Of a stretch of 64,000 bases of DNA, positions 44,235-55,387 are shown one piece after another. Within the stretch, counting starts at the first letter, position 1. Every line of letters starts with the position of its first letter. The DNA lies in assembly GCA_018057455.1 (NCBI GenBank), contig JAGPDT010000008.1, positions 4,494 to 68,493 of the forward strand, read 5' to 3'. Both the position numbers and the translations under genes were made by a program. Below the pieces are notes generated by a model. The model was not told where the DNA came from and did not search any database. It was given only the letters and a program-made list of their open reading frames with translations. This DNA is from Flavobacteriales bacterium (GTDB lineage Bacteria; Bacteroidota; Bacteroidia; Flavobacteriales_F; PHOS-HE28).

Positions 44235-45779
44235 TCAGTGTTTGAAGTGTCTGTTTCCGGTGATGCACATGGCGATGCCCAGCGTGTTGCAGGCATCGAT
44301 GCTCGCTTGGTCGCGGATGCTTCCACCGGGTTGTACGATGGCCGTGATCCCGGCGTTCGCACCGATGGTAACGCAGTCCGGGAAGGGGAAGAACGCGTCG
44401 CTGGCCAGGGCGGCGCCGCGCAGGTCGAAATGGAATTTGCCCGCTTTGGCGATGGCCTGTTCCAAGGCGTCCACCCGGCTGGTCTGCCCGGTGCCGCTGC
44501 CCAGCAGTTGCCCCCCTTTGGCCAGCACGATGGCGTTGCTCTTGGTGTGCTTCACCAAGATGTTGGCGAAGACCAGGTCCTGCAGCTCTGCGGGGGTGGG
44601 GGCCTTGGTGGTGGCGGTCTGCAGGTCCTCGGCGCGCTCCAACAATTGGTCCGGCAGCTGGGAGAGGAGGCCGTTGAGTGCCGAACGGAACCGGCGGGGC
44701 GGTACGGTTGCCGGCTTTCGGCGCAGGATGATGCGGTTCTTCTTGCGGCCCAGTAGAGCCAAGGCCTCGGGTGTGTAGTCCGGTGCGCAGATGATCTCGA
44801 AGAACAACGTGTCGATGGCGGTGGCGGTGGCGGCATCCACCGTGGTGGTGGTGATCAACACCCCGCCGAAGGCGCTTACCGGGTCGCCGGCGAGGGCGGC
44901 TTCCCAAGCCTGCTGCAGGGTGGGGCGCACGGCCGCACCGCAGGCGTTGTTGTGCTTGAGGATGGCGAAGGGCACCCCGTGGAGGCGGTCCAGGTCGTCG
45001 ATCAGGTCCACGGCGGCATCCAGGTCCAAGAGGTTGTTGTAGCTGAGCTCCTTGCCGCCGAGCCGGTCGAACTGCCCGTTGAGGTCGCCCAGGAAGCTGG
45101 CCGGTTGGTGCGGGTTTTCCCCGTAGCGCAAGGGATGCACGGGTAGGTCGGCCAGGGCCGGGCGCTGGGCTGCCTCGGGGTCAAATCCGGTGAACCAGCC
45201 GTGGATGGCGCGGTCGTAGTGGGCGGTTTCCGCGAAGGCATGGGTGGCGAAGGCCTTGCGCTGGGCCAAGGTGGTGTGGCCGTCCTGTGCCGAGAGGATC
45301 CGCAGGGCCTCGGCATAGTGGCGCTGGGCCGGCACGATGAGCACGTCGCCATGGTTCTTGGCGGCGGCGCGGATCAAGGAAACGCCGCCGATGTCGATTT
45401 TTTCAATGATGTCCTCCTCGCTGCCCCCTGCGGCCACGGTGGCCTCGAACGGATACAGGTCCACGATCACCAGGTCGATCGGTGCGATCGCATGGGCCTC
45501 CATTTGTGCCACATCGTCCGGCAGGCCCCTGCGCCCCAGGATGCCCCCGAAGACCTTCGGATGCAAGGTCTTCACGCGGCCGCCCAGGATGCTCGGATAG
45601 TCGGTGATGTCTTCCACGGGCACCACCGGGACCCCCAATCCTTCAATGAAGGCACGGGTGCCGCCCGTGCTGCACAGCGTCACCTGTAAGCGGTGGAGCT
45701 CACGCACCATGGGCTCCAGTCCTGTTTTGTCAAATACGGAGATCAGCGCCCGTTCAATGCGCTTGGTGGCTTCTGCCAT
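44235..45779 (-). CDS. purH: Bifunctional AICAR transformylase / IMP cyclohydrolase
   Basis: ALISVFDK, GRVKTLHP, IDIGG, AAKNH, LRYGENPHQ, KHNNACG, SDAFFPF, QPGGS. Confidence 0.97.
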   Translation of the reverse strand: MAEATKRIERALISVFDKTGLEPMVRELHRLQVTLCSTGGTRAFIEGLGVPVVPVEDITDYPSILGGRVKTLHPKVFGGILGRRGLPDDVAQMEAHAIAPIDLVIVDLYPFEATVAAGGSEEDIIEKIDIGGVSLIRAAAKNHGDVLIVPAQRHYAEALRILSAQDGHTTLAQRKAFATHAFAETAHYDRAIHGWFTGFDPEAAQRPALADLPVHPLRYGENPHQPASFLGDLNGQFDRLGGKELSYNNLLDLDAAVDLIDDLDRLHGVPFAILKHNNACGAAVRPTLQQAWEAALAGDPVSAFGGVLITTTTVDAATATAIDTLFFEIICAPDYTPEALALLGRKKNRIILRRKPATVPPRRFRSALNGLLSQLPDQLLERAEDLQTATTKAPTPAELQDLVFANILVKHTKSNAIVLAKGGQLLGSGTGQTSRVDALEQAIAKAGKFHFDLRGAALASDAFFPFPDCVTIGANAGITAIVQPGGSIRDQASIDACNTLGIAMCITGNRHFKH

Positions 45780-45961
45780 GCCGGTTCTGGGGTTGCGCAA
45801 GTTTACCCCGCAATGGTGGAACTGGACGGGTTGGATTGCACGGCTTTTCAGCACGGTTACCAACAGGCTGCAGGCAACGAGGGCGTGTGGCGGGCTTGGG
45901 CGCCGGGCAGGGTATCGGAGCCGCTCTCCAAGTCCGGTCACCGACGGGGATCCGGTGCAAC

Positions 45962-45995
45962 TTCATGATCCCTTAACATGCAATGCTTCACTTTG
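45962..45995 (+). promoter_or_regulatory. Phased repeats (TTCAT, TTAAC) plus degenerate -7 (TCACTTTG) upstream of the response regulator
   Basis: Repeats 26 and 15 bp upstream of the -7-like element; CCTTAACATG is shared with the TBDR promoter. Confidence 0.5.
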
Positions 45996-46030
45996 CAGCG
46001 CGTACCAACAGGTATGCGCTCTCCAGAGGC

Positions 46031-46705
46031 ATGGTAAAAAAGGTATTGTTGGTGGACGATGAGGCGGACATCCTGGCGTTGTTGCGCTACAACCTGGAGC
46101 GGGAAGGCATTGCCGTTCAGGTGGCCAGCAATGGGGTGGAGGCGTTGGAAGTGGCGGGGCGCGAGCAGCCCGACCTGGTGGTGCTGGACATCATGATGCC
46201 GGGCATGGACGGGGTGGAGGTCTGCGGCCACCTGCGCCGCACCCCCGGCTTGGAGCAGGTGCTCATTGCCTTCCTTACCGCCCGCACCGAAGACTATTCG
46301 CACATCGCCGGCTATGAGGCGGGCGCCGATGACTACATCAACAAACCGGTGCGCCCCAAGGTGTTCGTTTCCAAGGTGCAGGCGCTGCTCAAGCGCGGGG
46401 GCCGGTCCGGCGGAAAGCGCCAGGTGATGGAGTCCAACGGGGTCAAGGTGGACCTGGAGCGGATCGAGGTGACCCGTGACGGCGAGGTGCTGCAGTTGCC
46501 CAAGAAGGAATTCGAACTGCTGGCCTTGCTGATGAGCAAGCCGGGCAAGGTGTTCCTGCGGGATGAGATCTATGCGCGCGTATGGGGCAACGACATCATC
46601 GTGGGCGACCGGACCATCGATGTGCACATCCGCAAGCTGCGCGAGAAGCTGGGGGATGACCGCATCGGCACGGTGAAGGGCATGGGCTACCGGTTCGAGC
46701 TCTGA
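46031..46705 (+). CDS. OmpR/PhoB-family response regulator (PhoP-like)
   Basis: VLLVDDE, DIMMPG (phospho-Asp), FLTA, DDYINKP; winged HTH KEFELL, RTIDVHIRKLREK. Confidence 0.93.
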   Translation: MVKKVLLVDDEADILALLRYNLEREGIAVQVASNGVEALEVAGREQPDLVVLDIMMPGMDGVEVCGHLRRTPGLEQVLIAFLTARTEDYSHIAGYEAGADDYINKPVRPKVFVSKVQALLKRGGRSGGKRQVMESNGVKVDLERIEVTRDGEVLQLPKKEFELLALLMSKPGKVFLRDEIYARVWGNDIIVGDRTIDVHIRKLREKLGDDRIGTVKGMGYRFEL

Positions 46706-46740
46706 CGCGGCCCGCGGACGGACGTGGTGGTTTGCGGCGG

Positions 46741-48432
46741 TCAGCGCCTGCCTACCAGCGCTTCGGTCACACGCAGGAGGTGGTCACCGGCCACCTCTCC
46801 GTCGCTCATCAATTCGGCAAGCACCAAGTTGGTGCGTGCGCTGGTCTCCGGGGCGTCGGGGTCCTGCCACCGCTCCTGCCGCGCCCGGGTGCAATGCCTC
46901 CGGATGGTGCGGTCGACCATGGCGGCTTCGTCCAGTGAGGCCTGGCTTTCCTCCGCCTCCAGGTTCTGCACCAGGATGCGCGCAGCCCGGTCCAGGAGGT
47001 CCAAGAGCTGCAGCACCGCTTCACGCTGGGCGGGATCGAACCAGAGGCGTTGGTCGGACCGGCGCTCCATGGCCTTGCTCATGCGCTGGGCGATGGCCGC
47101 CACGCGCTCCAGGTCACGCGATATGGAGTGGAAAGACCGGATGCGCCGGGCCGTGGCCTCTTCGCGCACCTCCGTGCCGATGTGCGCCAGGAAGCCGCCC
47201 AGCTCGCGTTCCGCACGCCCGAAGATCGCGGCATAGCGGGCCACGCGTTGCATGGTCACCGCACGCATTGCCGGATCGGTCTTCAGCAACAGTTCGCGCA
47301 ACATGCCCAGCATGCGCTGGTAGAGCTTGGCCAGCTTGACCACTTCCTTGTGTGCTTCCAGCAGGGATGCCTCGGGGGTCAACGGCATCATGGGGTCCTG
47401 CAGATAGGCCAGGCGGTACTGTTCATCCAGGGTATTGCCCACGGGCACCCATCGGGCCACGGTCATTTCAATCCACGGCACGAACTGGAGCAGGACCGCC
47501 CCGTTGATCACGTTGAAGCCCAAATGCCAGTAGGTGAGGGCCCATTGCAGGGCATCGGCATCGGTGCGCGGGTCTGCCCCGTGGAGCAGCCCGGTCAACA
47601 CCGATACCCCCGTGAGCAACGGCCGGAACAGCAGCAGGGCACCGCCCACGCCCACCAGCTTGATCAACAGATGGGCCCGTGCGGCGCGCTTGGCCCACAC
47701 ATTGCCGGCCAGTGCAGCGATGTTCGCCGTGAAGGTGGTGCCGATGTTCTCGCCCAGCACCAGCGCCGCCCCGGACGAGTAGCTGATGATGCCCGTTCCG
47801 CAAAGGGCCAGGGTGAGCACCAGGGCCACGCTGGAGGATTGCACGGCAAAGGCCAGCAACGCACCCAGGCCAACGAAGATCAAGGGGGAAAGCAGCCCCA
47901 GGTCCTGGAACTGCCCCAGGAAGGCCACGGCCTCGGCCGAGGGGGGGGGGACGTGCTCGCGCAGCAACCCGATGGCCAGGAAGAGCAGGGCCGTGCCCAT
48001 CAAGGCCTCACTGGCCGCTTTCAGCCGGGGGGTGCGGGCCAGCAGCAGCGGCAACGACAGGGCGGACAGGGCGAGGGCCACCCGGGAGAGGTCCAAGGAG
48101 GAGAAGCCCACGGCCGTGAACAGCAGCAGCTTCAGCGTGGTGCCGATGTTGGCGCCGATCAGCACCGGGATGGCCCGCCGCAGCGAGAGGAGGCCGGAGT
48201 TCACAAAGCTCACCACCATCACCGACACCACGGAGGAGTACTGCATCACCAAGGTGATGGAGATGCCCGTGAACACACCGCGTGAACGGCCTGCGGTCAT
48301 GGCATTGAGGCCGCTCCGCAGCCTTGGACCGGCCACCTGCTGCATGCTCCCGCTCATCAGCTTCATGCCGAAGACCAGCAGGCCCAACGCGCCCGCCAAC
48401 ATCAGCAATCCCATGGCGCCAAATTCCTGCAT
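46741..48432 (-). CDS. Na/Pi cotransporter family protein (NptA-like) with C-terminal PhoU-like domain
   Basis: Two repeats MQYSSVVS/GANIGTT and VQSSSVA/GENIGTT; helical cytoplasmic C-terminus with DLERVA. Confidence 0.88.
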   Translation of the reverse strand: MQEFGAMGLLMLAGALGLLVFGMKLMSGSMQQVAGPRLRSGLNAMTAGRSRGVFTGISITLVMQYSSVVSVMVVSFVNSGLLSLRRAIPVLIGANIGTTLKLLLFTAVGFSSLDLSRVALALSALSLPLLLARTPRLKAASEALMGTALLFLAIGLLREHVPPPSAEAVAFLGQFQDLGLLSPLIFVGLGALLAFAVQSSSVALVLTLALCGTGIISYSSGAALVLGENIGTTFTANIAALAGNVWAKRAARAHLLIKLVGVGGALLLFRPLLTGVSVLTGLLHGADPRTDADALQWALTYWHLGFNVINGAVLLQFVPWIEMTVARWVPVGNTLDEQYRLAYLQDPMMPLTPEASLLEAHKEVVKLAKLYQRMLGMLRELLLKTDPAMRAVTMQRVARYAAIFGRAERELGGFLAHIGTEVREEATARRIRSFHSISRDLERVAAIAQRMSKAMERRSDQRLWFDPAQREAVLQLLDLLDRAARILVQNLEAEESQASLDEAAMVDRTIRRHCTRARQERWQDPDAPETSARTNLVLAELMSDGEVAGDHLLRVTEALVGRR

Positions 48433-48448
48433 GCCGCGTGGAAAGGGC

Positions 48449-48482
48449 GAAATGTACCTTGCCCATGTTGCCGCAACGTTAA
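48449..48482 (-). promoter_or_regulatory. Phased repeats (TTAAC, GCAAC) plus degenerate -7 (TACATTTC) upstream of the Na/Pi cotransporter
   Basis: Repeats 26 and 15 bp upstream of the -7-like element. Confidence 0.5.
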
Positions 48483-48555
48483 GTCTTCGGCCCTGCGCCG
48501 GTATCCATGGCCGCAACGGGCAGCGCGTGGAGGCCCGCGGCTACTTTCGCAGCGC

Positions 48556-49569
48556 ATGACACTCCGTTCGCCGCGCGCGATCGCCCTGTTGGTGGCCCTG
48601 TGCACGGCCTTGGTCGCCGGGGCGGTGCTCCACCTTGTTCCAGGCGGGGGTGCCGTGCAGGAAGTGGCCGTGGTCCTGGCGGTGTTCCTTACCGCGGGTG
48701 CCGGCACCTGGTGGTTGGTGGAGCGCTATGTGCAAGCCCGCGTGGAGCTGATCCACCGCACCGTGCATGAGGCGCGCGGAGGGCGTGTGGACGGTGCGAA
48801 ACGACCGGTGGGGTTGCAGGAGGTGGATGCCGAAGTGGCCGCCTGGGCGGGGGAGAAGGGCAAGGAACTCGTGGACCTGCGCGAACGCGAGCGCTTCCGC
48901 CGGGAGTTCATCGGCAACCTGGCCCATGAGCTGCGCACACCGGCCTTCAGTATTCAAGGCTACATCCTCACCCTGCTGGAAGGCGGATTGGAAGACCCCA
49001 AGGTGAACCGCATCTTCCTGCAGCGGGCCAGCGACGGCACGGACCGCATGATCCGCATCATCGAGGACCTGGACGTGATCTCCAACCTGGAAAGCGGCGT
49101 GATCGCGGTGAAGGCCGGGCGGATGGAACTGAAGGCCCTGGTGGACGAAATGATCGACGGCCTCCGCACCCGGGCCGCCGCACGTGCCATCCGGTTGCAC
49201 GATGGGATCCAGGATGAGGTCTGGGTGCTCGCCGATCACGACCGGTTGGCGCAGGTGTTCCAGAATTTGCTGGGCAATGCCGTCCACTACGGCCGGGAAG
49301 GCGGGAATTGCACGGTGCAGGTCTTTGATATTGGAAAGGAAGTATTGGTGGAAGTGGCCGATGACGGCCCGGGCATCGCCGCAGAGCACCTGCCCCGCCT
49401 GTTCGAGCGCTTCTACCGCGTGGGCCAGAGCCGGGCGCGCAACGAGGGCGGCTCCGGGCTGGGCTTGGCGATCGTGAAGCACCTTGTGGAGGCCCATGGC
49501 GGCACCATTGCCGTGAAGAGCACCGAAGGCGAGGGCACGGCGTTTTCCTTCACGTTGCCCAAAGCATGA
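48556..49569 (+). CDS. Sensor histidine kinase (PhoR-like)
   Basis: Two TM helices; RREFIGNLAHELRTP; QVFQNLLGNAVHY; DDGPGI; FERFYRV; GSGLGLAIVKH. Confidence 0.93.
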   Translation: MTLRSPRAIALLVALCTALVAGAVLHLVPGGGAVQEVAVVLAVFLTAGAGTWWLVERYVQARVELIHRTVHEARGGRVDGAKRPVGLQEVDAEVAAWAGEKGKELVDLRERERFRREFIGNLAHELRTPAFSIQGYILTLLEGGLEDPKVNRIFLQRASDGTDRMIRIIEDLDVISNLESGVIAVKAGRMELKALVDEMIDGLRTRAAARAIRLHDGIQDEVWVLADHDRLAQVFQNLLGNAVHYGREGGNCTVQVFDIGKEVLVEVADDGPGIAAEHLPRLFERFYRVGQSRARNEGGSGLGLAIVKHLVEAHGGTIAVKSTEGEGTAFSFTLPKA

Positions 49570-49581
49570 ACCCGGGGTGGG

Positions 49582-49613
49582 AAACAAGAAAGGGCCGCCC
49601 GGAGGCAGCCCTT
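49582..49613 (-). terminator. Intrinsic terminator of the lipoprotein gene (convergent with the kinase)
   Basis: Minus strand AAGGGCTGCC-TCCG-GGCGGCCCTT followed by TCTTGTTT. Confidence 0.75.
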
Positions 49614-49635
49614 GGACGCAATTGCCCGACCCGGG

Positions 49636-51048
49636 TCAGTACACCGTGTTCTGCGGGTCCCAGTTGCACCAGCCTGCGGTCCAGTTCTCCGCGCCGAACG
49701 CACCTCGGAAGGACACTTGCTGGAAGAAGGGATCGGCGGCGACGCCGGTGAAGTCCGCGCCGCTGAGCAGGGGCGAACCCGCGTTGGGCAACAGGATGGG
49801 GGCGGTGAGGCTCATCGGTGCCGCCATGCCCAGAGCTGCCGCGTCGTTGGCCTCGCTGTTGTTCCAGCCCGCGGTGTTGAACCACGTGCTGATGTCGAAG
49901 GTGCTGCCCGAAGCGACGGCCAAGGGCGTGGTACAGCCGGCCACCACGCTGGCACGCATCATCAGGGTGTTGGCGGCGGCGGCGGCTTCGGTGGGCGTTC
50001 CGTCCAGCAACAGGCCCGTGGGATATCCGGCGAACACGGTGTTGTACGCGGTGAGGCGGCTGTTGCGGCGGATATGGGCGGCACGTTTGTATTGCGTGTT
50101 GGTGGCGGCCTGGTCCACGGTGTGGGGGCCGAAGAAGGTGATGTTGCTGAAGATGGGCATGGTGTATGGTGCGGCGCTGGAGCCGCTGGCATCGTTGTCG
50201 CTCTCGAAGCCGTTGCTGCCGCTCTGGTCGGCAATGGCCGGGTCGCGCAGGGACATGCCGAACTGCACCATGCCGCGGTAGCCGTTGTCGGTGTCGAAGT
50301 CGTCATCCCAGCCGCGGAAGGCCGCGATGTGCTTGAGGTTCACCGTGCCGCCGAACATCTCGTAGCTGTCGTCGCCGCAGTGGCTCACCTGGAGGTGGTC
50401 GATGGTGGTGCCGTGGCCCACCGATCCAAGCGTCAGGCCGTTGATCTCCTGGTTGGGCTGCAGGGCGATGCCGGGGAATTCGATGCGCACGTAGCGCAGG
50501 ACCCCGCTGTTGTCGGCATCGTTGGTGCCACCGTACCAGGCCTCGGGTCCGCCTTCGATCAGGGCTTCACCTCCGGGCTGGTTGTTGGTGGCGCGGCCAC
50601 AGATGATGATGCCGCCCCAGTCGCCATAGTCCCGGCTGCCCGCGGCCTGGTTGCTGGTGAACACGATGGGCTGGCTGCTGCTGCCTTCCGCATGGATCTT
50701 CGCTCCGCGCTGGATGATCAAGGTGCCCTTGCTGTTCTTGTCGCCTTTGATCACCGTGCCGGGCTCAATGGTGAGCGTGGCCCCGTCGGACACGTAGACG
50801 AAGCCGTGCAGCAACCATTGTTTGTCGCTGGTGAAGGTGAAGTTTGCCGCGGTGGTGCCTTCCACCTGCCTGGTGTTGTTGCCGATGTCGGTGATGGTGA
50901 AGGCGCTGCCGGAGGGCGTTGGCACGTGGGGCTCGGCGGTCTCGTCCTTCTTGCAGGCGGAGAAGGTGAGCAGTGTGCCCCCGACCAACAAGGCCAGGAG
51001 CGATCGGTTCAGGTTCGGTTTCATCTTTGTTTGCTGGTCTGTTTTCAT
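49636..51048 (-). CDS. Surface lipoprotein with Asp-rich, beta-helix-like repeats (non-SusD TBDR partner; alternative ATG at 51024)
   Basis: Lipobox FSAC-KKD; IEPGTVIKG, PIVFTS, GDWGGIIICG, NGLTLGSVG, DDSYEMFGG, DDDFDTDNG, NGFESDND. Confidence 0.8.
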   Translation of the reverse strand: MKTDQQTKMKPNLNRSLLALLVGGTLLTFSACKKDETAEPHVPTPSGSAFTITDIGNNTRQVEGTTAANFTFTSDKQWLLHGFVYVSDGATLTIEPGTVIKGDKNSKGTLIIQRGAKIHAEGSSSQPIVFTSNQAAGSRDYGDWGGIIICGRATNNQPGGEALIEGGPEAWYGGTNDADNSGVLRYVRIEFPGIALQPNQEINGLTLGSVGHGTTIDHLQVSHCGDDSYEMFGGTVNLKHIAAFRGWDDDFDTDNGYRGMVQFGMSLRDPAIADQSGSNGFESDNDASGSSAAPYTMPIFSNITFFGPHTVDQAATNTQYKRAAHIRRNSRLTAYNTVFAGYPTGLLLDGTPTEAAAAANTLMMRASVVAGCTTPLAVASGSTFDISTWFNTAGWNNSEANDAAALGMAAPMSLTAPILLPNAGSPLLSGADFTGVAADPFFQQVSFRGAFGAENWTAGWCNWDPQNTVY

Positions 51049-51056
51049 TTCGGCCA

Positions 51057-51133
51057 CAAAGGGACCCCATGCACCTTGCCCCGGTGTGAAGCGCGCTTTA
51101 TGCGATCGTTGCGCGGTGTGAACGTTGCGTTAA
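51057..51133 (-). promoter_or_regulatory. Six phased repeats plus degenerate -7 (TCCCTTTG) upstream of the lipoprotein gene
   Basis: Minus strand TTAAC, TTCAC, GCAAC, ATAAA, TTCAC, GCAAG at spacings 11,10,11,11,11. Confidence 0.55.
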
Positions 51134-51263
51134 GGGCCATGGACCAACAAGCGGCAACACGACCGCAGGGTCCCGAGGCGGCCGATCCTGCGTGTGTTTC
51201 CCGGGGCGGGCCCCGGCGTGCGGTTCCAGCTCCATGAAGGGCTCGACCCCGGATGCCGTGATC

Positions 51264-54077
51264 TCAGAACGAGTAGCTCAATTCCCCGCTGAAGCAGGCC
51301 CCCTGGCGGAAGCGGGTCACCTCCTCGTCGCCGGTGGTGAGGCGCCCGTCGCCGTTGCCGTCCTGCATCAGCAACGTGCGGGCGTTCAGCACATTGCTTG
51401 CGCCGAGCTTCAGGTTGAACCGCTCGCCGAGCTGCTTGCCCACGGTGATGTCCAGCTGGCCGGCGGGCATCTCGTAAATGTCCGGTGTGCCTGCGCTGCC
51501 CACGGCATGGAGGCGTTTGCCGTGGATGTTGTACACGACGTTGCACTGTAAGCGGGAAGCGCTGTCGGCCACGAAGAGGCCTGCATTCACCACATACGGG
51601 CTTTGGCCCATCATGGGCCGTTCGTTGGCCTGGCCCACGGCTTCCGGTCCCAACGTCACCGTGCTATGTACCAAGGTGGCGTTGAACAGTACGCCCGTGC
51701 GGCCGGGGATGCCGCGGGTGAAGGCGCCGTTCAGCGAGCGGCGCACTTCCACCTCCGCACCGATGCTGCGTGCGCTTTCCGCGTTGCGGAAGGTGAAGTT
51801 GCGCGTGCCACCTGATCCCGCACCGGGCACGAAGAACAGTTCAATGGGGTCCGTGAACGATTTGCTGAAGACCCCGGCGCTGATCACTTCGCCCAAGCCG
51901 GGGTACATCTCCCAGCGGGCTTCCACGTTGCTGATGGTGGCCGTGGTGAGGCCGGGATTGCCGTAGAGCACGTTGTTGGTGCTGAAGTCATAGAAGGAGA
52001 ACGGCGCCAGCTCGCGGAATTCGGGGCGGTTCACGGTGTTGCTCCACGCCACGCGCACCAAGGACTTTTCCGTGATGTCCAAGGCCGCGTTCACCGAGGG
52101 CAGCACGCTGGGCACGGGATTGTCCACGCGCACGGGGATGCCGCCGTAAGTGGCTCCTTCCAGTTCCTGCCGGTTGTGCTCCAGGCGTACGCCGCCGCTT
52201 ACCCTGAGGCGTTTGGCCCAGCGCACCGCGGTGCCGAGGTGGCCGGCCAGCAAGGTGTTGGCCGCCGTGTAGCTGTCGCTGGGGTTGGTGCCTTCCTCCA
52301 GCTTGAAACCGGTGCTTCCATTGATGTTGGCATCGGCGAAGACCTGCTCCGGCGGAAGGGAGGCCAAGGCCTGGTTGAACTGCCCGCTGTTCGCCTTGCG
52401 GAAGCTCATCCAGCGTGCGCTGAAGCTGCGGTCCTTGCGCTCGGCGAACAGGCCTGCATCGATCTGGGCCGTGATCCGGGCCTCTTCATCCCCCAGTTTG
52501 CGGCCCAGGTCCAGCCTGCCGGTCCACGTCTGCTCGTCCAGGTTGCTGAAGAAGCGGCCGGCATCGAGGGTGGAGGCCGTGGGGGCGATCACCACCTGGA
52601 AGGGTGCATCGCTGGAGCCGATGTCGCGCACCGTGCGGATCCGGCGAAGGTCCGGTTCCTGGCTCCAGGCCCGGCCATGGCCCACGGTCCAGTCCATGTG
52701 GCTGCCGCCGTGGCCCAGGTCGTGGCTGCCGTGCAGCTGGCCGCTGTACACGGTGCGTTGTGTGTAGTGGTGGGCGAAGTTGCGCACCTCGAAGCCTTCC
52801 TCCAGGTTGTTGCCCGTGCGTTCGGTGGTCCGGTTCTCGCCGGTCTGGATGAACAAATTGCGGAACTCCAACTTGGTGCCGGTGCCCAGCAATGCGCTCC
52901 AGTTGTGCATCACACTGGTGCGTGCCGTGCGCACGTTCTCCCGGTCGGTGTAGGTATAGATGGTGTCGCTCTGTTGCGCCGCGGCATCGTAGGCGTTGTA
53001 GTTGTACTGCCGCGCGGTCCATGCGGCATTGGTGTTGGACAGGTTGAGGGCCGTGACCGTACCGTACTTGTTCCGCGCATCGGGCATGCCGAGGCGGCGG
53101 GCGATCAGCAGGCCGAAGCGCTGGTCCGGGGCGGCCTGCTGCACGGTGGAGCCCCAGGTGTTGGGCAGCGCCCGGCCCAGCGTGGCCAACTGGTCCGGAT
53201 GGGCGACCGCGTTCAGGTGGGCGGGAAAGGCGGAAGGCAGCGTGCGTGAGCCATCGTCGAAGCCCAGGAAGTCGGTGCTGCTGCGCTGGTCCTGCCTCAG
53301 GTCCTGGAAGGTGGTGCCCGCGCGGATGCCCAGGCCGTAGCTCACCTTCAGTTCGTTTTCCCGTGGCACGCCCATGGTGGTGAGTTCAATGACGCCACCG
53401 GCGAAATCACCGGGCAGCCCGGGCGCCCCGCTTTTTTGGATGAGCAAGCGGTCCAGTGCGCCGCTGGGCAGCAGGTCGAAGCTGAAGGCGCGTTTGTCCG
53501 GCTCCAAGCTGGGTGCGGCCACGCCGTTCAATAGCACGCTGCTGTAGCGGTCGGAGAGTCCGCGCACCAGCACGAAACGCCCGTCGGTGATGGTGATGCC
53601 AGGTATGCGCTTCACCACGTCGGCGGCATGGCGGTCCTGCCCTTTGGCGATCTGTTCGCGGCCGACGCCGTTGGCCACCTGCCCGCTGTTGCGCACGGCC
53701 ATCAGCACTGCGGCCTCGGTATCCACACGGCGTTCGCGCACCACTTCCACCGTACCCATCTGCACGCCACCTTCCCCGAAGATCAGTTCAACCTGCGCCG
53801 TGGAGGCTTGGCCCAGCACCACTTCCCGTTCCAGGCTGGCCTGCCCCATTTGGCTGGCCACCAAGGTGTAGGTACCCGGTGCGGCGCTCAGGCTGAACCG
53901 GCCGTCGAGGTCGGTGCTGGCGGCCCTGGTGGTGCCCTTGATCGCCACGCTGGCGAAGGGTTGTGGCTGTGGCATGCCGTTCTCCAGGGCCAGTACCACC
54001 CCGGTGATGGTGCCTGTTTGGGCCAGGGCGAAAGACCCCGCCAGCATGCCGAGGACCAAGAGGAAGTTGCGGATCAT
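51264..54077 (-). CDS. TonB-dependent receptor with N-terminal carboxypeptidase-regulatory-like domain
   Basis: Signal peptide; STDLDGRF; plug VKRIPGIT..VRGLSDRY..FSFDLLPS..GDFAGG; RPEFRELAPF; LGASNVLN; C-terminal YSF. Confidence 0.93.
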   Translation of the reverse strand: MIRNFLLVLGMLAGSFALAQTGTITGVVLALENGMPQPQPFASVAIKGTTRAASTDLDGRFSLSAAPGTYTLVASQMGQASLEREVVLGQASTAQVELIFGEGGVQMGTVEVVRERRVDTEAAVLMAVRNSGQVANGVGREQIAKGQDRHAADVVKRIPGITITDGRFVLVRGLSDRYSSVLLNGVAAPSLEPDKRAFSFDLLPSGALDRLLIQKSGAPGLPGDFAGGVIELTTMGVPRENELKVSYGLGIRAGTTFQDLRQDQRSSTDFLGFDDGSRTLPSAFPAHLNAVAHPDQLATLGRALPNTWGSTVQQAAPDQRFGLLIARRLGMPDARNKYGTVTALNLSNTNAAWTARQYNYNAYDAAAQQSDTIYTYTDRENVRTARTSVMHNWSALLGTGTKLEFRNLFIQTGENRTTERTGNNLEEGFEVRNFAHHYTQRTVYSGQLHGSHDLGHGGSHMDWTVGHGRAWSQEPDLRRIRTVRDIGSSDAPFQVVIAPTASTLDAGRFFSNLDEQTWTGRLDLGRKLGDEEARITAQIDAGLFAERKDRSFSARWMSFRKANSGQFNQALASLPPEQVFADANINGSTGFKLEEGTNPSDSYTAANTLLAGHLGTAVRWAKRLRVSGGVRLEHNRQELEGATYGGIPVRVDNPVPSVLPSVNAALDITEKSLVRVAWSNTVNRPEFRELAPFSFYDFSTNNVLYGNPGLTTATISNVEARWEMYPGLGEVISAGVFSKSFTDPIELFFVPGAGSGGTRNFTFRNAESARSIGAEVEVRRSLNGAFTRGIPGRTGVLFNATLVHSTVTLGPEAVGQANERPMMGQSPYVVNAGLFVADSASRLQCNVVYNIHGKRLHAVGSAGTPDIYEMPAGQLDITVGKQLGERFNLKLGASNVLNARTLLMQDGNGDGRLTTGDEEVTRFRQGACFSGELSYSF

Positions 54078-54119
54078 GGTTCGTTGCGCCCGGCCGGATA
54101 GGCGGCTTGGACGTGGGCG

Positions 54120-54175
54120 CAAAAGTCCCGGGCGTGGATTTCCCCGGTCTTGATCCCATGTTAAGGATCGGTTAG
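54120..54175 (-). promoter_or_regulatory. Phased repeats (CTAAC, TTAAC, TCAAG) plus degenerate -7 (GACTTTTG) upstream of the TBDR
   Basis: Repeats 48, 37 and 26 bp upstream of the -7-like element. Confidence 0.55.
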
Positions 54176-54203: not shown

Positions 54204-54881
54204 TCAGAACCGCAGCCCGATGCCGACCAGGATGTTCACCGCGTCGGTGTTGCTCTCCAGCACGCCGAAGTCCACCTGGCCCGCCCCATTGATCTCTATG
54301 GAGGAGGGGTTTACATAGGTGGCCTTGCCGCTGTTGAAGCGTTCCACGCGGGCCTCCAGGTAGCCTATGCCTCCCAAGCCCACCATCAGGCCGGCGGCCC
54401 AGCCGGTGCTGAAGGTGAAGTCGTTCGCTTGGCGCTCCTGCTGCAAGGGGTCTTCCATGCCTTCCACGGTGAGCTTGCTCCTGGTGGTGAATTGCCGCAT
54501 GCCGGCCATGCCGTCCACGTAAGGCCGCACCTTGCCCTTGAGCGGGCTGAAGCGCAACAGCGGGTGGTAGCCCAGCACCTTGGCCTGCACCGCCAGTTTG
54601 CCTTCGGTGGCTGAAAGCGCCGGTTCGGCCACGGGCACGGTGGCTGTTTCGCGGCCCATGATGCCGTAGTTGAATGCGAAGCCGCCCTGGATCGGCAATA
54701 GGCCGATGGGCCAGGCCATCTGCCCGCCGAAGGTGAACATGTTCCGGCCCCAGGTGTCGGCGAATTCACCGGTGGGCACGCCCATGCCCACGGTGGCCCC
54801 GATGTTGCCTTGGAAGCCGGGCACTTGGCCGGTGGCCAAGCTGGTGGCAAAGGGCACGAGGAGCAGAAGCAGTTGCTTCAT
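54204..54881 (-). CDS. Small outer-membrane beta-barrel protein
   Basis: Signal peptide; alternating amphipathic strands; VRPYVDG; C-terminal GIGLRF. Confidence 0.75.
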   Translation of the reverse strand: MKQLLLLLVPFATSLATGQVPGFQGNIGATVGMGVPTGEFADTWGRNMFTFGGQMAWPIGLLPIQGGFAFNYGIMGRETATVPVAEPALSATEGKLAVQAKVLGYHPLLRFSPLKGKVRPYVDGMAGMRQFTTRSKLTVEGMEDPLQQERQANDFTFSTGWAAGLMVGLGGIGYLEARVERFNSGKATYVNPSSIEINGAGQVDFGVLESNTDAVNILVGIGLRF

Positions 54882-54937
54882 CAGATCAGGGTTTGCGAGG
54901 GGCTGAGCCGATCGCGTGCCGATCTTCGCAGGCGCCC

Positions 54938-55387
54938 ATGGAACTGTTCAGCGGTTGGACCGATGCCGGATTGCCCGCGCTCTTCCTGGCCTCGTTCTTG
55001 GCGGCCACCGTCCTGCCCTTCAGCTCGGAGGTGTTGCTCGCGGCCATGGCCCTTGGAACGTGGGGAACTTGGCCCTTGTTGTTCACGGCTTCCATCGGAA
55101 ATACGCTGGGTGGCCTGGCCAATTACGGTATCGGCCGCTGGCTGCCTCAAGGGCGCCTGCTGCGCTGGTTCCGGGTCGACCCTTCAACAGGTGAGCGGTG
55201 GGCCGGGCAGGTGCAGCGGTACGGCGCGTGGACGGCAGTGTTCTGCTGGCTGCCCGTGGTGGGCGATCCCATCGCCATTGCGCTGGGCTTGTTCCGCGTG
55301 CGCTTTTGGCCGGTGCTGGTGCTGATGTTCATCGGCAAGGCCCTGCGCTATGCCGTGGTGATCGCCCTGCTCCGGGGCTTGTTCTGA
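54938..55387 (+). CDS. YqaA/DedA (VTT domain) family membrane protein
   Basis: SFLAATVLPFSSE, GNTLGG..NY.IGR, WLPVVGDPI, GKALRY. Confidence 0.9.
   Translation: MELFSGWTDAGLPALFLASFLAATVLPFSSEVLLAAMALGTWGTWPLLFTASIGNTLGGLANYGIGRWLPQGRLLRWFRVDPSTGERWAGQVQRYGAWTAVFCWLPVVGDPIAIALGLFRVRFWPVLVLMFIGKALRYAVVIALLRGLF

Follow-up and report, generated by a model that had tools for sequence, protein, structure and literature searches.

A putative Pho box of phased 11-nt repeats at four promoters of a Flavobacteriales gene cluster

In the 64,000-nt stretch of Flavobacteriales DNA analysed here (referred to as the window), four promoters of one gene cluster carry tandem direct repeats with an 11-nt period, and in all four of them the final unit begins 15 nt before a -7-like promoter element. 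These promoters belong to an OmpR-family response regulator, a sodium/phosphate (Na/Pi) cotransporter, a lipoprotein and a TonB-dependent receptor (TBDR). We interpret the repeats, with a probability of about 0.8, as Pho boxes, namely tandem sites of the phosphorylated form of the PhoB-like regulator encoded at 46031-46705 (forward strand), which would thereby activate the cluster as well as its own gene. The window corresponds to contig C103:4494-68493 of a 3.3-Mb genome (G000; 99% complete, 63% G+C). Its nearest public relatives are assemblies of uncultured bacteria labelled 'Flavobacteriales bacterium', of which several come from activated sludge.

Phased repeats at four promoters

The positions of the units were counted from the first base of an element with one mismatch to TAnnTTTG. 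The regulator promoter contains two 11-nt units, TTCATGATCCC and TTAACATGCAA (45962-45983, forward strand), with TTCAT at 45962 (offset 26) and TTAAC at 45973 (offset 15) ahead of the -7-like element TCACTTTG (45988-45995, forward strand). The transporter promoter likewise possesses two units, TTAACGTTGCG and GCAACATGGGC (48461-48482, reverse strand), in which TTAAC (48478-48482) lies at offset 26 and GCAAC (48467-48471) at offset 15 from TACATTTC (48449-48456, reverse strand). A six-unit array precedes the lipoprotein gene (51069-51133, reverse strand); its units start 15, 26, 37, 48, 58 and 69 nt upstream of TCCCTTTG (51057-51064, reverse strand) and read GCAAG, TTCAC, ATAAA, GCAAC, TTCAC and TTAAC, respectively. 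The TBDR promoter carries four units (54132-54175, reverse strand), namely CTAAC at 48, TTAAC at 37, TCAAG at 26 and GAAAT at 15 nt from GACTTTTG (54120-54127, reverse strand). The numbers of repeats are therefore 2, 2, 6 and 4, with a spacing of 11 nt and once of 10 nt. The pentamers, offsets and shared words listed for these promoters in an earlier first-pass annotation of the DNA were all found where it had placed them. It did not include the weak GAAAT at offset 15 of the TBDR promoter, a place at which orthologues have GCAAC, GTAAC or TTAAG.

Two longer words are shared between promoters. The 10-mer CCTTAACATG, present at 45971 (forward strand) and 54157-54166 (reverse strand), is no more than the consensus unit (C)TTAACAT(G). 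As for ATG(T/C)ACCTTGCCC, this 13-mer does occur at 48452 and 51069 as annotated, but it is not conserved in orthologues and its offsets differ between the two promoters; it was rejected as a second motif on these grounds.

To assess conservation, orthologous loci from 20 genomes of the genus were collected and each promoter was anchored on its -7-like element. The footprints have a depth of 18 genus genomes for the TBDR, 21 for the lipoprotein, 8 for the transporter and 29 for the regulator. Across 20-29 genomes, the nTAAC units hold their register upstream of the -7-like element, at 15, 26, 37 and 48 nt (as well as 58 and 69 nt), and it is the spacers that diverge. In the genus alignment, the information content amounts to 0.5-1.8 bits at the T-A-A-C positions versus less than 0.35 bits elsewhere. 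The comparison of orthologous regions finds the units conserved in register, and the motif TTAACATTnnnTTAACAT obtained by Gibbs sampling from pstS promoters (see below) agrees with them. Both this register across the genus and the de novo appearance of the same motif on pstS promoters bear out the proposal of an OmpR/PhoB-type operator of 11-bp direct repeats.

Each promoter shows the pattern in its own form. The TBDR promoter reads nTAAC-N6-TTAAC-N6-nnAAG-N6-(G/C)TAA(C/T)-N10-GGGACTTTTGC in the 18 genomes, with a near-invariant -7-like element GGGACTTTTGC. The lipoprotein promoter keeps six blocks in 21 genomes (CTTAAC, TT(C/A)A(C/T), CAACGATC, ATAAG, nnCAC and G(T/C)AAC) ahead of T(C/G)(C/T)CTTTG, and the protein itself shows 54-80% identity across the sampled genomes. 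In the eight genomes with an aligned transporter promoter, the consensus is CTTAAC-N6-GCAAC-N10-TAnnTTCG, where the -7-like element varies as TAnnTT(T/C)(C/G). The pair TTCAC-N6-TTAAC is present upstream of the regulator in all genus orthologues, at 15/26 nt from the -7-like element here and in the closest relatives (e.g., L033 of genome G012) and at 26/37 nt in others. This shift between species is exactly 11 nt, i.e., one helical turn, and the -7-like element itself reads TCA(C/A)TTTG where the relationship is close and nCCTTTGC where it is distant.

The -7-like elements of the four promoters, each with one mismatch, are also conserved in orthologues. The first-pass annotation had taken them for weakened promoters. 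Among the 1316 upstream regions of at least 80 nt in the whole genome, a perfect TAnnTTTG is found in only 154 (12%), and a best match with one mismatch is the commonest class (583 of 1316, 44%). One-mismatch elements are therefore normal in this genome and provide no evidence of weakened promoters, and this part of the proposal was dropped.

In about half of the genus (L041-L050 and L081-L086), the lipoprotein and a small outer-membrane protein (OMP) do not enclose the regulator-transporter-kinase module. In these genomes, the regulator gene stands as an orphan at another place, followed by 0.7-1.1 kb without a called open reading frame, and in its promoter nCCTTTGC is preceded, at a distance of about 21 nt, by three phased units (CTTAACCTAnn, TTTGACnnnnn and CTTAACAnnnn). 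Even there, arrays are retained at the TBDR and lipoprotein promoters, and the regulator gene carries the motif upstream of itself in every genome examined. Since the repeats are kept both before the relocated regulator and at the TBDR and lipoprotein promoters, regulator and motif co-occur throughout the genus. The suggested autoregulation gains support from the persistence of the repeats wherever the gene lies, and it would be a conserved feature.

The motif on pstS promoters and across Bacteroidota

A positive control within the genus was sought in pstS. Only one of 41 genomes has a PstS-like gene scoring above the level of the TonB-cluster protein described below, and this gene lies behind another gene, so that this control was abandoned. 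As a real pstS is wanting in the genus, other families of the same class supplied the pstS genes, chosen by a score above the TIGR02136 cut-off (23 of 81 genomes, 24 upstream regions). The best motif of Gibbs sampling on these 24 regions was TTAACATTnnnTTAACAT, which came up in six of the 12 restarts; further optima of the sampler were the 3' end of a porin gene lying upstream and the -7 element itself. Of the 24 regions, 13 contain a site of 17-28 bits, and the remaining regions score at most 4 bits. The motif of these promoters is TTAAC-N6-TTAAC, and in several of them the last unit lies 15 nt ahead of a TAnnTTTG-like element (e.g., TTAACATTAGAGCGA-GACATTTG and TTAACAATTCAAATA-TAATTTTG). That pstS promoters in other families of the Bacteroidia yield the same motif de novo, with the same 15-nt geometry, supports the link to phosphate that had been postulated for the repeats.

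A profile derived from the pstS sites, which was built without any sequence of the window, was then applied to the orthologues. Listed in the order obtained, its maxima fall at 37, 48, 15 and 26 nt in the TBDR promoter, at 69, 15, 37, 58, 48 and 26 nt in the lipoprotein promoter, at 26 and 15 nt in the transporter promoter and at 26 nt in the regulator promoter. The profile background is -12 ± 4 bits, and these maxima stand 3-5 standard deviations above other offsets. When the positions fixed by the first-pass annotation were ranked with the pstS-derived unit profile among 6.6 million genome positions, the four-unit TBDR array reached rank 10, the regulator dimer rank 35 and the transporter dimer rank 120. 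Two of the ten sites that score best in the genome with the dimer profile are the TBDR site and the distal lipoprotein site. By a second profile, made from genus orthologues with the window excluded, the four promoters lead the ranking of the whole genome with 24.0, 19.9, 17.7 and 15.5 bits, compared with 16.5 bits for the next locus. Here, the lipoprotein array (24.0 bits) gives the best four-unit score of the genome and the transporter site (17.7 bits) the top two-unit site.

The genome-wide scan recovers the four promoters near the top, but not the pstS and phosphatase targets that had been expected, because the genome lacks those genes. PstS (TIGR02136) has no match in this 99%-complete genome, and a real PstS is missing from almost the whole genus; free-standing PhoU, PhoD, PhoX and the alkaline phosphatase PhoA are without a match in the genome, too. 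The sole PBP_like_2 (PstS-like) protein (C91:4703-5635) was rejected as a real pstS product, as its gene sits outside any pst operon between TonB-like and TPR genes. Given the absence of Pst, free-standing PhoU, PhoD, PhoX and PhoA, the four promoters seem to represent the main and nearly whole phosphate-starvation regulon, confined to this cluster.

Other matches of the scans (C77, C30 and C111:7029) show neither a matching -7 geometry nor a phosphate-related gene and were not accepted as regulon members. The top genome-wide match of the pstS-derived profile is TTAACCAAAGTTTAACA (C111:51115-51136, 21.2 bits), which has a DUF1573-like lipoprotein gene on one side and a MATE transporter gene on the other and is kept in eight relatives. 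Its distance to the MATE -7 element varies from 43 to 47 nt without phase lock. This site is a possible fifth target, or it may have a different role.

To examine the distribution further, 80 loci with homologues of the lipoprotein were collected from Flavobacteriales, Chitinophagales, Bacteroidales, Cytophagales (Hymenobacter, Pontibacter and Adhaeribacter) and others, and same-strand matches of the pstS-derived profile were counted in 250-nt bins, in which the background is 0-1 per bin. Matches were obtained in 16 of 65 loci in the bin about 3.1 kb upstream of the lipoprotein homologue, which coincides with the TBDR promoter, in 15 of 76 loci directly upstream of the homologue and in 9 of 78 loci directly downstream of it. 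The gene just downstream is pstS in two checked loci (L143 and L158) and encodes a porin-like protein in L148, while another porin-like gene in L150 lies behind a separate match about 4.4 kb downstream. In six class-level genomes, the lipoprotein homologue is found 3-15 kb from pstS. The putative Pho box thus occurs across the class and the phylum, and on this sequence evidence the motif is not peculiar to the locus. As a separate observation, L143 and L158 belong to other orders, and there pstS, with a strong Pho box of its own, comes immediately after the PF28492 lipoprotein.

Encoded proteins, proposed mechanism and alternative explanations

The regulator consists of a receiver and a winged-helix output domain (Pfam Response_reg and Trans_reg_C). 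Of the five regulators of the OmpR family in the genome, it matches PhoB best, and every near-complete genome of the genus contains exactly one orthologue (65-84% identity). The closest solved structure is that of RegX3, a mycobacterial phosphate regulator (PMC4415409). The adjoining histidine kinase (48556-49569, forward strand; 337 aa) is PhoR/PnpS-like, with HisKA and HATPase_c domains. The transporter (46741-48432, reverse strand) is of the NptA/YjbB type and matches Pfam Na_Pi_cotrans with 144 bits and NF037997 (Na_Pi_symport) with 132 bits, the latter above cut-off. Its C-terminal PhoU-like region scores 23.0 bits, which is borderline to the cut-off of 23.5, with 22 bits for TIGR02135 and a weak phoU_full match; it is the sole PhoU-family match in the genome. 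Since there is no other PhoU in the genome and NptA's PhoU domain in Staphylococcus aureus modulates PhoPR (PMC13170248), this tail may be regarded as a candidate accessory sensor.

The TBDR (51264-54077, reverse strand) contains CarboxypepD_reg and Plug domains. The lipoprotein (49636-51024, reverse strand; 462 aa) was assigned to family PF28492, and its structure model (pLDDT 90.4) is entirely a right-handed beta-helix; matches in the PDB are weak and comprise pectate lyases and tailspikes (best E 3e-3). The family is widespread in Bacteroidota, with about 8000 matches. In Flavobacterium johnsoniae, lipoprotein FII and the neighbouring TonB-dependent transporter (TBDT) of the phoBR cluster are induced 8-10 log2-fold by depletion of inorganic phosphate (Pi) (PMC8115612). 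The lipoprotein in our window fits the published description of FII, the comparison being one of descriptions.

The Bacteroidota promoter model comprises a -33 element and a -7 element of the sequence TAnnTTTG. The repeats would act as head-to-tail sites, one per helical turn, with the core nTAAC and the consensus TTAACAT. When phosphate is scarce, the PhoR-like kinase would phosphorylate the regulator, and regulator dimers would then fill the arrays. Since the two promoter-proximal units start 26 and 15 nt before the -7-like element, this pair lies where the -33 element would be and could occupy its place. From there, the regulator would recruit RNA polymerase, probably through a contact with the sigma factor, in the manner of class II activators at the pho promoters of Escherichia coli. 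Four transcripts would be switched on, encoding the regulator, the Na/Pi cotransporter with its PhoU-like tail, the TBDR and the surface beta-helix lipoprotein. By analogy, we infer PhoB-type class II activation, rather than repression, together with positive autoregulation. In a more tentative extension, which we consider possible although rather doubtful, the phosphate-starvation response of this genus, which lacks Pst, PhoU and phosphatases, is reduced to the locus as one self-contained module. Here, the PhoU-like tail of the NptA-type transporter would be the only accessory sensor and feed a PAS-less PhoR, high-affinity uptake would proceed via the TBDR and the beta-helix lipoprotein, and the TTAACAT array 15 nt from the -7-like element would define the activator contact with the unusual primary sigma factor of Bacteroidota.

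Several observations weigh against the Pho-box reading. Evaluated with the NCBIfam PhoB/PhoR equivalog models (TIGR02154, NF053854, TIGR02966 and NF053855), the regulator matches the PhoB models best, with 201 and 199 bits, which is below the respective cut-offs of 296 and 270. The kinase scores 230 and 175 bits for the PhoR equivalogs (cut-offs of 334 and 500, respectively) and 254 bits for PnpS, again below cut-off. It has no match to a Pfam PAS family, its HisKA domain starting from residue 115. The genome encodes four other OmpR-family regulators and offers no pstS or phosphatase gene as a positive control to anchor the regulon. Finally, several proximal units (GAAAT, GCAAG and ATAAA) are degenerate and score low with the strict pstS-derived profile. 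Apart from these degenerate units, the same observations favour an alternative in which the repeats are the operator of an OmpR-family system that senses something else, such as the ligand of the TBDR, or in which one of the four other OmpR-type regulators binds them, whereby the likeness to a Pho box would reflect a shared winged-helix binding mode. We consider this unlikely. The same motif and geometry are present on the pstS promoters of 13 other Bacteroidia genomes and on pstS genes adjoining lipoprotein homologues, a Na/Pi cotransporter is itself a direct target, and the homologous cluster of F. johnsoniae is regulated by Pi. In addition, it is this regulator which has the motif upstream of its own gene in all genomes examined.

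It could also be argued that phased A-rich pentamers are an intrinsic part of promoter architecture with no dedicated factor, i.e., a variant -33 element, an UP-like element or a DNA-curvature signal. The units overlap the expected place of the -33 element and phased A/T-rich tracts can bend DNA, but the motif is limited to a handful of promoters in the genome, the arrays reach 69 nt upstream with a sequence-specific TAAC core, and the motif follows phosphate genes across families, which makes such an origin very improbable. That the pattern arose by chance is hardly credible. The pentamer family of the first-pass annotation was indeed loose and its anchor freely chosen, -7 elements with one mismatch abound, and conservation is lacking for the shared 13-mer. 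The idea is contradicted, however, by ranks of 10-120 among 6.6 million at pre-specified positions with an independent profile, by units kept in register in as many as 29 genomes and by the enrichment of matches at particular positions in 80 distant loci. The Pho box remains our preferred reading.

The kinase gene differs from the four predicted targets in its upstream region. Its -7-like element TACTTTCG (48542-48549, forward strand) ends 6 nt before the ATG, and no phased repeats were seen upstream of this element. It is kept 6-8 nt ahead of the ATG in relatives, and this conserved layout suggests that the mRNA is leaderless or nearly so. The gene may hence be constitutive and leaderless.

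The cluster is flanked by purH (44235-45941, reverse strand) on the side of the regulator and by the small OMP (54204-54881, reverse strand) and a YqaA-like gene (54938-55387) on the side of the TBDR. Here, the OMP and YqaA-like block (54204-55387) is positioned between the TBDR and a LOG-family gene. The OMP sits between purH and the regulator in six close relatives (L031, L034-L037 and others), and the flanking sequence suggests that the YqaA-like gene moved along with it. A transposition of the block to the opposite side of the Pho cluster, without inversion, appears to have taken place. Recombination between the inverted copies of CCTTAACATG was rejected as the cause of this rearrangement, because the change is a transposition and not an inversion.

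Comparison with known phosphate systems

The arrangement is of a known kind, here a probable Pho box with PhoB-type activation and autoregulation, and no new regulatory principle is involved. Pho boxes of 11-nt direct-repeat units are textbook knowledge (PMC4415409), and the TTAAC(A) core of PhoP and SphR sites as well as the Pi regulation of the homologous Flavobacterium cluster are likewise already known. Earlier accounts for Bacteroidota consist of induced genes, to which the present analysis adds a concrete Pho-box consensus and promoter geometry. A published Pho-box consensus or operator for this phylum was not found in full-text searches of the literature or in the Bacteroidota papers checked, a coverage that is incomplete and does not amount to proof of absence. 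With the motif, predictions of Pho regulons become possible for uncultured Bacteroidota of wastewater and soil. The motif also ties a widespread pair of receptor and PF28492 beta-helix lipoprotein to phosphate acquisition by cis-regulatory evidence, and points to a lineage that handles phosphate without Pst, PhoU or classical phosphatases.

The closest counterpart in gene content is F. johnsoniae Fjoh_0543-0546, encoding PhoR, PhoB, a TBDT and lipoprotein FII, which are strongly induced by Pi depletion (PMC8115612). Both clusters place a PhoBR pair next to a TonB-dependent transporter and to a lipoprotein whose beta-helix is pectin-lyase-like. Unlike the genome studied here, F. johnsoniae possesses Pst and many phosphatases. 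The study of that cluster describes no promoter motif, and its text contains none of the terms 'pho box', 'promoter' and 'motif' (0 occurrences each; PMC8115612). The transporter resembles NptA of S. aureus, a Na/Pi cotransporter with a PhoU-like tail; the phosphate two-component system controls the expression of NptA and can in turn be modulated by it (PMC13170248). In contrast to S. aureus NptA, the PhoU-like region here is borderline (23 bits) and would be the only PhoU-type accessory protein of the genome.

In Bacillus subtilis, the core binding region of PhoP is composed of TT(A/T/C)ACA repeats (Hulett and colleagues). The putative sites described here share with it the 11-bp direct repeats, a TTAACA-type hexamer core, autoregulation of the regulator operon and the presence of four or more units at strong promoters. 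They differ in phylum and sigma factor, as the promoters have a Bacteroidota -7 element of the TAnnTTTG type instead of a sigma-A -10 hexamer.

The consensus of the cyanobacterial SphR Pho box is PyTTAAPyPy(T/A). This box is organized as 8-bp tandem repeats with 3-bp linkers (PMC1906773). In common with the present motif, it has a CTTAAC core every 11 bp in two to four units and was found by phylogenetic footprinting upstream of phosphate genes. However, the core is followed by A-T here (TTAACAT) and by pyrimidines in SphR sites, and the predicted targets are a TBDR, a beta-helix lipoprotein and NptA, whereas SphR targets pst and phoA.

The E. coli Pho box comprises two 11-nt direct-repeat units and mediates class II activation by PhoB (PMC4415409), with tandem head-to-tail regulator dimers standing in for the upstream promoter element (PMC4415409). 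The core in E. coli is CTGTCAT, and the signal is transmitted via PstSCAB-PhoU, which is missing in the genome analysed here. The two systems nevertheless have in common an autoregulated regulator of the OmpR/PhoB family and tandem 11-nt units at the place of the upstream element, about 10 nt upstream of the downstream element. Judged by the positions of these units, the geometry of the four promoters matches that of E. coli PhoB and B. subtilis PhoP promoters.

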